DNA of 35,503 nt, taken from a virus. Lineage: Duplodnaviria > Heunggongvirae > Uroviricota > Caudoviricetes. The position numbers were made by a program, and so were the translations under genes. The notes beneath the pieces were generated by a model. It was not told the origin of the DNA. It ran no database searches and was given only the letters and a program-made list of their open reading frames with translations. Where the stretch lies: IMG/VR virus record IMGVR_UViG_2896595138_000012, one strand, 5' to 3'. Shown here piece by piece: positions 8,583-11,098 of this stretch; the stretch's first letter is position 1, and each line of letters starts with the position of its first letter.

Positions 8583-10742
8583 ATGAGCCATCACAACACA
8601 CACCTGGCGTACCCGTGGAATGCCCCGCTGCCGGTTATTGATCCTGAGACGTTCGGCAGAGCGTTACCGCAGAAGCCAACCGCATTACAACGGGCAATCC
8701 GGGACTACCTCACCGAAGACATTCGCACTGAGGCCCGGCTGGATGAAGAAACCGTGGTCTTCCTGACAACCACGGACAAAGGCAAACAAATTAATTCACA
8801 CCTTCACCGGGACGAAGAGCGGCAGACAAGGCTGGATAAGCTGGCACGACACAGACGCGAAAATCCGCCAACGGAGGTATCGGAAGCGATAGCCGAACTT
8901 CGCGCCCTGCCACCGTTTCTTGCCAGCGTGCTGATCCGCGATCTGGCACGCCTGAACCGGAAACAGCAAAGCGCCCGCAGCAAAGGTGTAAAAAACAATA
9001 GCGCATACGTGGCCGATAACTTCGTTCGCCGTGGACTGCGCGCGCGCCTGAAACGTATCGAACGGGTTAACGACCGCTTTGCAACGCCGGCATTCAAATC
9101 CAGTGTCATACGCCATCGCCTTGAAGAGCTGCTCATGCTGCCGCAACTCAGCCGCGACAAGATCCAGCGCATCGCCACACTGACTGCGCAGTTCTTTACC
9201 GCAGAATTTGAACGCATATGTGATGAAGTTCCTGAACAGACCGGAAAGAATAATGACAGCCCGGTTATCTGGCTGCTGGCCTACCAGAAGATGGCACGCA
9301 TAGCCTTAACGCTGGGCGTGATCCCGCCATACTGGCCGGAACTCGAAATCAGGCACAACCGACGCACACCGCCGGACCCTGAACTGATACCGGGTGCGGT
9401 ACTGCGCATCACCTGCGCGACCTGGTGGAACAACCAGTTACGCCACATCGCCGATCTCTGGCGGGAGGAGTTACTGCGTGCCGCCGGCAGAGTGTCACGT
9501 AAACAATCCCCTTATATCAGCCATGAATCACTACTGGAGTTTCGCGAGAAGCGCCAGCGCACCCGTGATTTTCTCAAAAGCTGGGATATTGAAAACGAAG
9601 ACGGCGAGCGCCTGAGTCTGGAGGAAGTGTACTGGGCGGGCCCGGGGAATCCACGCAACCGCCGCAATGAAATGATGGTCTGCGTCAGAGGGATGGAGAT
9701 GGTAGCCGAATTGCGGGGTGACGTCGCATTCTTCATCACGGTAACAGCCCCTTCCCGCTTTCACAGCGTGAACGAAGACGGCAGCCTGAACCCGAAATAC
9801 AACGGTGCCACTGTACGCGATACCAGTGATTATCTGGTTTACGACTTCTTCGCAGCCGTAAGAAAAAAAATCAAAAAAGAGGGGCTGGGCTGGTACGGCG
9901 TGCGAACCGCTGAGCCACACCATGACGGCACGCCACACTGGCATATGCTGGTATTCACGTCCCCTGAGAACGCAGAGCACATCATCGAAATTATGCGCGA
10001 CGCAGCGATTAAATCAGATCGCCACGAACTGGGGGACGATATTTCGCCGCGCTTTGAATGCGAGAAGATAGATCCGGAAAAAGGGTCGCCGGCAAGCTAT
10101 ATCGCAACCTATATCGGTAAGAACCTGGACGCCAGCGCCTTCCACAACAATGATCCGAAAACCGGAAAACCTTACGTCGATAAGGAATCCGGGAAAACCA
10201 TGGCGGAAACCGTGGAGAACGCCATTGCATGGGCGAGCCTTCACCGCATACGTCAGTTCCAGTTTTTCGGCATTCCGCCCCGCCAGGTGTGGCGTGAACT
10301 CCGCCGCCTTGCAAGCCAGATGGGGCGCAACCCGGCATCACCGAAGCGACTCGATCATGGCGATATTGACGCCATTATGGCCGCCGCAGACGTAGGGTGT
10401 TTTGCCACCTACATCATGAAACAGGGTGGCGTGCTTATTCCACGCAACCAGTATCTGGTCCGCACCGCATACAAAACCGCAGACGAAGCTAATGACTACG
10501 GCGAATTCCCGCAGCGCATCTACGGAATTTGCGCCCCGTCACTCGGGGAACGGTACACCATCTGCACCCATCCGGATGAGTGGAAACTGGTCAGAAAGGA
10601 ATCTGACGCCGACAACAGCACGGACGAGGGTTTTGACCTTCGGGCGGCTTCGCCGCACCTTGGACTCGTGGCAATAACTGTCCCGGTGACGAAAAAACAG
10701 CCGGAACCGGCACAGAAAACAGGCAGCGTGGGTCGCGGCTGA
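8583..10742 (+). CDS. Rolling-circle replication initiation endonuclease (P2 gpA family, HUH)
   Basis: 719 aa; HUH motif HWHMLVF; paired active-site tyrosines YIATY (Y-x3-Y); possible 3' continuation in another frame (see findings). Confidence 0.85.
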   Translation: MSHHNTHLAYPWNAPLPVIDPETFGRALPQKPTALQRAIRDYLTEDIRTEARLDEETVVFLTTTDKGKQINSHLHRDEERQTRLDKLARHRRENPPTEVSEAIAELRALPPFLASVLIRDLARLNRKQQSARSKGVKNNSAYVADNFVRRGLRARLKRIERVNDRFATPAFKSSVIRHRLEELLMLPQLSRDKIQRIATLTAQFFTAEFERICDEVPEQTGKNNDSPVIWLLAYQKMARIALTLGVIPPYWPELEIRHNRRTPPDPELIPGAVLRITCATWWNNQLRHIADLWREELLRAAGRVSRKQSPYISHESLLEFREKRQRTRDFLKSWDIENEDGERLSLEEVYWAGPGNPRNRRNEMMVCVRGMEMVAELRGDVAFFITVTAPSRFHSVNEDGSLNPKYNGATVRDTSDYLVYDFFAAVRKKIKKEGLGWYGVRTAEPHHDGTPHWHMLVFTSPENAEHIIEIMRDAAIKSDRHELGDDISPRFECEKIDPEKGSPASYIATYIGKNLDASAFHNNDPKTGKPYVDKESGKTMAETVENAIAWASLHRIRQFQFFGIPPRQVWRELRRLASQMGRNPASPKRLDHGDIDAIMAAADVGCFATYIMKQGGVLIPRNQYLVRTAYKTADEANDYGEFPQRIYGICAPSLGERYTICTHPDEWKLVRKESDADNSTDEGFDLRAASPHLGLVAITVPVTKKQPEPAQKTGSVGRG

Positions 10743-10771
10743 CGCTTCCGGAAAGCGGCCTGGCGCACTGG

Positions 10772-11098
10772 TTGCAGACGTTAACCCGTCACGAGCGGAA
10801 ACAGCTCATCAGACAGCTTAAAAATCAGCCGCCCACCACGGATACCGGACAAAATAACACCAGACCAGCATCAGACACCCCTGTCAGGGTGGAGGTTGTC
10901 GTGCCTGTCGACACCACGACCATCGCACAAATCACCCGCGAACTCGACGCGCTGGGTGTGCAGCTGCCTGACGCAGCCATTATTTCCGTGAGTAACGGTG
11001 CCCGCGTTCGCCCGGGCGACGGGCGTATCGCGTACTGGAGCGCCACAACCCGCCGTATCGTCATCACACAGGAGTCGTCAGCGGAGGTAAGATCATGA
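10772..11098 (+). CDS. Hypothetical ORF with no ATG/GTG start; possibly the frameshifted 3' end of the replication gene
   Basis: Protein-like 108-aa frame open from 10679, only a TTG start candidate. Confidence 0.3.
   Translation: MQTLTRHERKQLIRQLKNQPPTTDTGQNNTRPASDTPVRVEVVVPVDTTTIAQITRELDALGVQLPDAAIISVSNGARVRPGDGRIAYWSATTRRIVITQESSAEVRS

Follow-up and report, generated by a model that had tools for sequence, protein, structure and literature searches.

The replication initiators of P2-like phages belong to the gpA family, whose members nick the phage origin through an HUH/tyrosine active site and in this way set off rolling-circle replication, and both an HUH metal-binding motif and a catalytic tyrosine pair, YxxxY, are known for the P2 A protein. 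In the cultured phage P88 the replication gene is continuous and encodes 940 aa. The present study examined a 35,503-nt stretch of DNA from a tailed phage of the Caudoviricetes (IMG/VR record IMGVR_UViG_2896595138_000012; hereafter the window), in which a gene of this family appears to end early and to be followed, in another reading frame, by an open reading frame (ORF) without an evident start. Comparison with homologues indicates that the trailing frame is the end of the replication gene; the start-less ORF is most probably an artefact or, less likely, the mark of a trivial pseudogene, and would then represent no new biology.

As written in the window, the replication frame is cut at codon 687 by the loss of one base and meets a stop at 10740-10742. 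The ORF list contains a 108-aa ORF, one base behind the replication frame, that runs from a TTG at 10772 to 11098, as an earlier, sequence-only reading of this DNA had described. That reading had the frame opening at 10679 and overlapping the replication ORF by about 60 nt; the preceding in-frame stop is the TGA at 10634-10636, and since the frame opens at 10637 the overlap is in fact 106 nt. It had also held that the frame contains neither ATG nor GTG and only the one TTG. There is indeed no ATG, and the TTG at 10772 is the first start-type codon, but GTG codons stand in frame at 10889, 10901, 10958 and 10988. At its far end, an ATGA at 11095-11098 provides both the stop of the trailing frame and the ATG of the next ORF (11095). 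The coordinates of these features and of the other interrupted genes are collected in Table 1.

Table 1. Features of the replication locus and of other interrupted genes in the window, numbered from its first base; lengths refer to encoded proteins.
Feature	Coordinates	Strand	Basis and reading
Replication ORF, uncorrected, 719 aa	8583..10742	+	Listed ORF; last 33 codons (10644-10742) off-frame relative to homologues
Trailing frame, by homology the C-terminal 152 residues of the replication protein	10637..11098	+	Open for 153 codons, one base behind the replication frame
Complete replication endonuclease gene (P2 gpA family), as predicted	8583..11098	+	838-aa single ORF after a G is restored at 10642-10644; ATGA overlaps the next gene
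G3 run, site of the missing base as placed by alignments	10642..10644	+	GGGG or AGGG in relatives, read CGG/CAG GGC
A6 run, earlier candidate, by alignment not the lesion	10692..10697	+	A6 in all five aligned relatives, read GAA AAA ACA (E K T)
Two downstream genes fused to a spurious 224-aa ORF	11095..11769	+	Two one-base deletions (G run 11200-11202, CC 11392-11393); 143 + 82 aa in relatives
C5 run breaking the holin gene	22951..22955	+	C6 in relatives; repaired 112 aa
G5 run splitting the tape measure gene into 53 + 646 aa	24822..24826	+	G6 in relatives; repaired 693 aa
C5 run splitting the tail fibre gene	28951..28955	+	C6 in relatives; repaired 668 aa
G3 run splitting a 226-aa gene	31567..31569	+	G4 in relatives; repaired 226 aa

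The family assignment was made with Pfam, in which Phage_GPA (PF05840) matched residues 193-517 of the window ORF and of a relative alike (E 2.6e-105; 352 bits against a curated cut-off of 31.4). Upstream of the break, within the N-terminal two thirds of the 838-aa protein, an HUH-type motif (HWHMLVF) and a tyrosine pair (YIATY, within SYIATYIGK) can be read in the translation, and catalysis is predicted from these motifs. Because both precede the break, the predicted catalytic core would be unaffected whatever the origin of the split.

A megablast search located this stretch in 67 complete E. coli genomes, and five E. coli prophages, at 99.4%, 89.6%, 87.3%, 81.7% and 81.0% DNA identity to the window, were examined. 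All five carry one CDS annotated as 'replication endonuclease', 826-838 aa long, that spans both of the window's frames and ends at the equivalent of window position 11098, four bases into the next gene; eight further genomes have the upstream 137-aa protein in common with the window, and in seven of them an 838-aa call was also found. Beyond these close relatives, tblastn matches to the region just past the break fall within the replication genes of cultured Xuanwuvirus phages, and a megablast search of a phage collection returned nothing beyond matches of 70-80 nt to Klebsiella prophages. When the 153-aa frame served as query, a homology search gave seven matches, each of them a 'replication endonuclease, partial'. 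A pattern scan of IMG/VR and the GTDB species representatives recovered 123 loci with conserved DNA around the break, and among the 113 whose stop falls inside the fetched DNA, 110 stay open for at least 153 codons beyond an FDL(Q/R)GG motif.

The sequence-only reading had proposed that the trailing frame continues the replication gene and that length and C-terminus be compared with gpA-family proteins. The comparison bears the proposal out, both in the single CDS of the relatives (826-838 aa, with 940 aa in P88, ending at the equivalent of 11098) and in the matches of the trailing frame, which were to replication endonuclease fragments only; the pattern that would have spoken against it, in which homologues stop at the counterpart of 10742 and a TTG-start ORF is conserved after them, was looked for and not found. 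The relatives have a single ORF up to a shared stop, at the equivalent of 11098 as against 10742 in the window, and the window's gene has one as well once a G is added at 10642-10644. Judged by homology, the trailing frame is the end of the replication gene and no separate gene.

The module encoded past the break varies among homologues, with about 153-157 codons following the FDLxGG motif here as against 245-288 in most loci. These C-terminal ~150 aa contain a strongly conserved segment, RELDALGVQLPDAAIISVxNGARVR...AYW. A Pfam search of the C-terminal 153 aa returned no family, and an AlphaFold2 model of the same residues, built from an 8-sequence alignment, had a mean pLDDT of 44.8, a quality too low for the model to be of use.

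One inserted base upstream fuses both frames into an 838-aa ORF, and the place of that base was sought by alignment to homologues. The sequence-only reading had put it in the A6 run at 10692-10697. The run is there, and one more base in it does join the frames (838 codons), but the relatives keep A6 in all five cases, and the added A yields a 17-residue stretch, AASPHLGLVAITVPVTK, without a match in any homologue, on which grounds this repair was rejected. In the alignment with the 99.4% relative the gap falls in CTTC-GGGCGG at 10641/10642, the relatives having CGGGGC or CAGGGC, and in every alignment made the missing base falls within G run 10642-10644. The protein of the relatives reads FDL(R/Q)GG(F/P)AAPWTRGNNCPGDEKTAGTG; a G added to this run gives exactly that and recreates the conserved GGFAAPWTRGNNCPGDEKT, as no other repair does, and the FDLQGGPAAPWTRGNNCP motif is kept across ~120 further viral-contig loci. 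The diagnosis of a single base lost in a homopolymer therefore stands (G3 here, G4 or AGGG in relatives), with the lost base, as the alignments place it, being a G of run 10642-10644 and the A6 run being intact. The position at which two frames can be joined need not be the position at which a base was lost, and here the use of homologues shifted it upstream by 50 nt. No one-base-short allele of this site was found in IMG/VR, JGI metagenomes or the GTDB species representatives, in which 123 loci have the longer form.

The window is identical to bases 4,749,150-4,784,652 of CP026845.1 (GCA_002950375.1, 4.93 Mb), the record position being 4,749,149 + p for window position p; a literature search for CP026845 / GCA_002950375 found no paper. 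Exact look-up of the 719-aa replication product returned CP026845.1 as the only contig, and the truncated products (the 719-aa replication protein, the 224-aa fusion and the 646-aa tape measure protein) each occur on this one contig only, without an NCBI protein accession. With the G restored, the 838-aa translation equals, residue for residue, a protein (P0043) to which several E. coli genomes give the annotation replication endonuclease and which is present on eight short-read contigs of 20-50 kb, which come from NCBI draft assemblies and from the Logan assembly of SRR13627079. Three of these contigs (L152-L154) carry essentially the same prophage, with the same replication allele and G4. 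Compared with them over window positions 1112-22546 (~20 kb, insertion sequence (IS) excluded), the window has two substitutions (8549 and 10598), an ISEc20 insertion and three one-base deletions (G run 10642-10644, G run 11200-11202 and CC 11392-11393). Compared with a further near-identical copy (L135, GCA_900450175.1) over the right-hand 12.8 kb, it has no substitutions and four one-base deletions (C run 22951-22955, G run 24822-24826, C run 28951-28955 and G run 31567-31569). Over ~33 kb the differences from near-identical copies thus come to seven one-base deletions, two substitutions and one ISEc20 insertion.

All seven private deletions lie in G/C runs within coding sequence, and neither private insertions, nonsense changes nor small indels outside homopolymers were found in the window relative to the compared copies. 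The runs affected are three of the eight G6/C6 runs, three of the 112 G4/C4 runs (all G4) and one C3; the G5/C5 runs (21 of 21) and the A/T runs of at least 7 (13 of 13) are intact. Relative to FDAARGOS_943 the window has a pN/pS of 0.27 and 11 single-base length differences; those at 3764, 4725 and 17785 are common to other genomes and were set aside as polymorphisms not private to the window, and the one at 12100 was discarded because it marks the edge of the alignment at the IS. The more familiar pattern, deletions that strike runs of 6-8 whatever the base, is seen in an older draft of this prophage (L149).

When the seven bases are put back, six genes assume the lengths annotated in relatives, at 838, 143, 112, 693, 668 and 226 aa. 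The 143-aa gene, which adjoins the replication gene, was hit twice by one-base deletions, and because its repair gives 143 aa, as in relatives, the 224-aa ORF at 11095..11769 is read as a fusion artefact. The sequence-only reading had recognized the same kind of lesion in the tape measure, fibre and holin genes, and rightly so (G6>G5 at 24822-24826, C6>C5 at 28951-28955 and C6>C5 at 22951-22955), although its count of four cases has to be raised to seven window-private one-base deletions. Its suggestion of systematic under-calling is favoured by the excess of G/C-run deletions over substitutions and qualified by the restriction to G/C runs, with long A/T runs (7 or more) and G5/C5 runs spared. 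A second long-contig assembly, of Shigella boydii (GCA_002968245.1), has a diverged copy of the prophage, integrated at a different chromosomal position and differing from L135 by 66 substitutions, in which the identical tape measure G6>G5 change is found, plus a C4>C3 elsewhere.

The split of the replication gene is unique to this record, and the class of lesion to which it belongs recurs in it; its origin is most probably technical. Very probably, on the pattern of lesions, the missing G is absent from the consensus and not from the DNA, as a homopolymer-length error of the source assembly. In reality the gene would be a single 838-aa gpA-family rolling-circle initiator of a P2/P88-like (Xuanwuvirus-type) prophage; the consensus would have dropped one G of a G4 run (10642-10644), giving the premature stop at 10740-10742 and leaving the last 152 codons to show up as a start-less ORF one base behind, and the lesion would be one of seven G/C-run under-calls within the 35.5-kb stretch. 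Two observations are those expected of an assembly error: the homopolymer lesion is seen in this assembly only, near-identical copies being intact, and lesions of its class recur in the record far above the number of substitutions (7 vs 2 in ~33 kb). The deletions could instead be real, making this a defective prophage and its replication gene a very recent pseudogene produced by replication slippage in the G4 run, with the other six lesions having arisen likewise, a reading that we consider unlikely; equally unlikely is its corollary, a shortened gene product of 719 aa whose catalytic core is intact and whose last 33 residues are nonsense. Genuine frameshifts in a decaying prophage are plausible because the host is rich in IS elements and real disruptive mutations adjoin the prophage: ISEc20 is inserted directly upstream of ogr, and the nearby host DNA has IS1, an IS3-family insertion in araF and a duplication of 8 bp within otsB. 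G/C runs are moreover natural hot spots of slippage, the under-calling would have to be selective in sparing long A/T and G5/C5 runs, and the host coding flanks are free of frameshifts, as they would be under purifying selection. This last point is weakened by the expectation of only 0.7 events there (16 kb examined, ~10 kb of it coding, zero coding frameshifts), G/C runs being scarce in the flanks. The window's ISEc20 was also compared with other ISEc20 copies for homopolymer errors, and nothing informative was found.

Against real deletions speaks the ratio of seven one-base deletions to two substitutions since the split from the nearest copies. In mutation accumulation experiments with E. 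coli, one-base indels amount to about a tenth of substitutions in the wild type, and even in mismatch-repair mutants they remain the minority; because one-base indels are so much the rarer class, a biological origin of the observed ratio is very unlikely. A slippage history would also have to be reconciled with the lack of any private nonsense change, insertion or non-homopolymer small indel in the window, and with the same allele being intact in every short-read copy. The tape measure G6>G5 change in the second genome counts for real mutation to the extent that a mutational hot spot could produce it, and it is expected of a context-specific technical error too. The fuller version, in which all seven deletions are real and this prophage and, independently, the relative in a Shigella-like genome were silenced by slippage at recurrent hot spots, we regard as more doubtful still; if true, it would mean that slippage mutations came in a burst, or that phage genes, the replication initiator among them, are switched in a contingency-like manner. 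A functional split, by ribosome or RNA polymerase slippage on the A6 or G run (programmed frameshifting) or through an independent gene starting at TTG 10772, seems hardly credible. The A6 run does sit in the overlap, a one-base backward shift there joins the frames, and the trailing frame ends in an ATGA coupled to the next gene; yet the two-frame layout occurs in no relative, all of which have a single ORF. Programmed frameshifting was rejected on this lack of conservation and on the zero frame, ACG AAA AAA CAG, which offers no X XXY YYZ heptamer (the run being six A after a G); the residues that joining at A6 would give are, as noted, unlike any homologue. The TTG-start gene was rejected in turn, as no Shine-Dalgarno-like sequence lies in the 20 nt before 10772 and no stand-alone homologue was found, the seven matches all being pieces of replication endonucleases. 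On this sequence evidence there is no recoding, alternative start or separate gene at the end of the replication gene.

For annotation, the correct description of the locus would be one 838-aa replication gene in place of a 719-aa gene and an orphan ORF, and the same kind of fragmentation affects five of its neighbours, namely the 143-aa gene, the genes for holin, tape measure and fibre, and the 226-aa gene. Anyone who took the splits at face value would be misled into seeing a defective prophage, a signal for recoding or new small ORFs.

Set beside known systems, the window's gene resembles the Xuanwuvirus/P88-like and P2-like replication endonucleases in its Phage_GPA domain, its HUH and YxxxY motifs and its early-operon position. 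In alignments, the region past the break falls within the replication genes of P88 and related phages, and the window's C-terminal tail differs from that of P88 in being a shorter variant. With the frameshift pseudogenes of decaying Shigella/E. coli prophages the window shares an IS-rich host, an IS in a regulatory region and the interruption of several phage genes; it differs from them in having a single class of lesion, at seven against two substitutions, and an allele that is intact in short-read copies. Homopolymer-length errors are named in PMC8812927 as the commonest residual error in long-read-only bacterial assemblies, and homopolymer-length consensus errors in such assemblies are also described in PMC12007338. 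The window departs from these in that only G/C runs are affected, some of just 3-4 bases, with long A/T runs spared; in lesion pattern it resembles them through one-base deletions that are confined to runs and private to one assembly, through genes otherwise unchanged, and through the recurrence of the same site in another long-contig assembly.

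Downstream of rep, the 143-aa and 82-aa genes are joined in the window as a spurious 224-aa ORF (11095-11769), a fusion resulting from two one-base deletions, one in the G run at 11200-11202 and the other at CC 11392-11393. Deletions of a single base were also found in other assemblies carrying copies of the prophage. An older draft of the window's prophage (L149; GCA_000268085.1, AKMV01000027.1) differs by only three substitutions and lacks one base at each of six long homopolymers, whichever the nucleotide (A8, T7, A8, C8, C6, T7), with rep, the portal gene, and the terminase gene split as a result; it is a second error-laden record, with a deletion spectrum unlike that of the window. 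The identical G6>G5 deletion in the tape measure gene occurs in L151 (GCA_002968245.1, PSSR01000001.1), a related prophage located elsewhere on the chromosome, adjoining greA/dacB; in L151, moreover, the 562-aa gene is reduced to 541 aa by a C4>C3 deletion.

Other length differences are natural and lie outside the set of errors. Homopolymer lengths in the window and in the E. coli reference prophage FDAARGOS_943 differ at 3764 (T6/T5), 4725 (C4/C5), and 17785 (A6/A5), the last falling between the scaffold and capsid genes; all are common to other genomes and are natural polymorphisms. Between the 75-aa and 137-aa genes, 11 nt (CATCCCGAAGC) flanked by the direct repeats CATCCCG are missing at 8110-8111, as they are in the closest copies (contigs L152-L154), and are present in more distant relatives; their presence or absence is a real intergenic length polymorphism.

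Coordinates of features in the prophage, its left host flank, and a related prophage
Feature	Location	Details
ogr	window 11825..12100	minus strand
ISEc20 (IS110 family)	window 12101-13559	ends approximate; 99.7% identity to copies in other E. coli
ISEc20 transposase	window 12333..13529	398 aa
Tail assembly chaperone gene, then DUF6890 ORF	window 24193-24680	99 aa; 63 aa
Left host flank lesions	L138 (CP026845.1) 20410 and 17625-19232	otsB duplication; IS insertions
L151 deletion sites	L151 10002 and 19389	G6>G5 (tape measure); C4>C3 (562-aa gene)

ISEc20 is inserted in a C8/G8 run immediately upstream of the ogr start codon, an insertion not found in any related prophage examined, and it probably separates this late-gene activator from its own ribosome-binding site and promoter. 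The host also bears insertions to the left of the prophage, where an IS3-family element breaks araF and an IS1 adjoins the prophage integrase; in the same flank, an 8-bp tandem duplication (ATAACAGG) in otsB has fused this gene to otsA. Such lesions typify a Shigella-like host rich in IS elements.

The prophage element is mosaic: its integrase/immunity end (1-3426) did not align to the FDAARGOS_943 prophage and is matched at 99% by other E. coli prophages. The right half has no substitutions over 12.8 kb relative to its nearest copy (L135; GCA_900450175.1), whereas the host DNA beside it on the right, from hok to sdiA, differs by approximately 1% between L135 and L140 (73 substitutions in 7.8 kb), which suggests either that the prophage spread horizontally in the recent past or that the flank underwent recombination.

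The DUF6890 ORF overlaps the tail assembly chaperone gene by 4 nt and is followed by the tape measure gene; at the position of this pair, before the tape measure gene, P2-like phages have a programmed frameshift (E/E+E').
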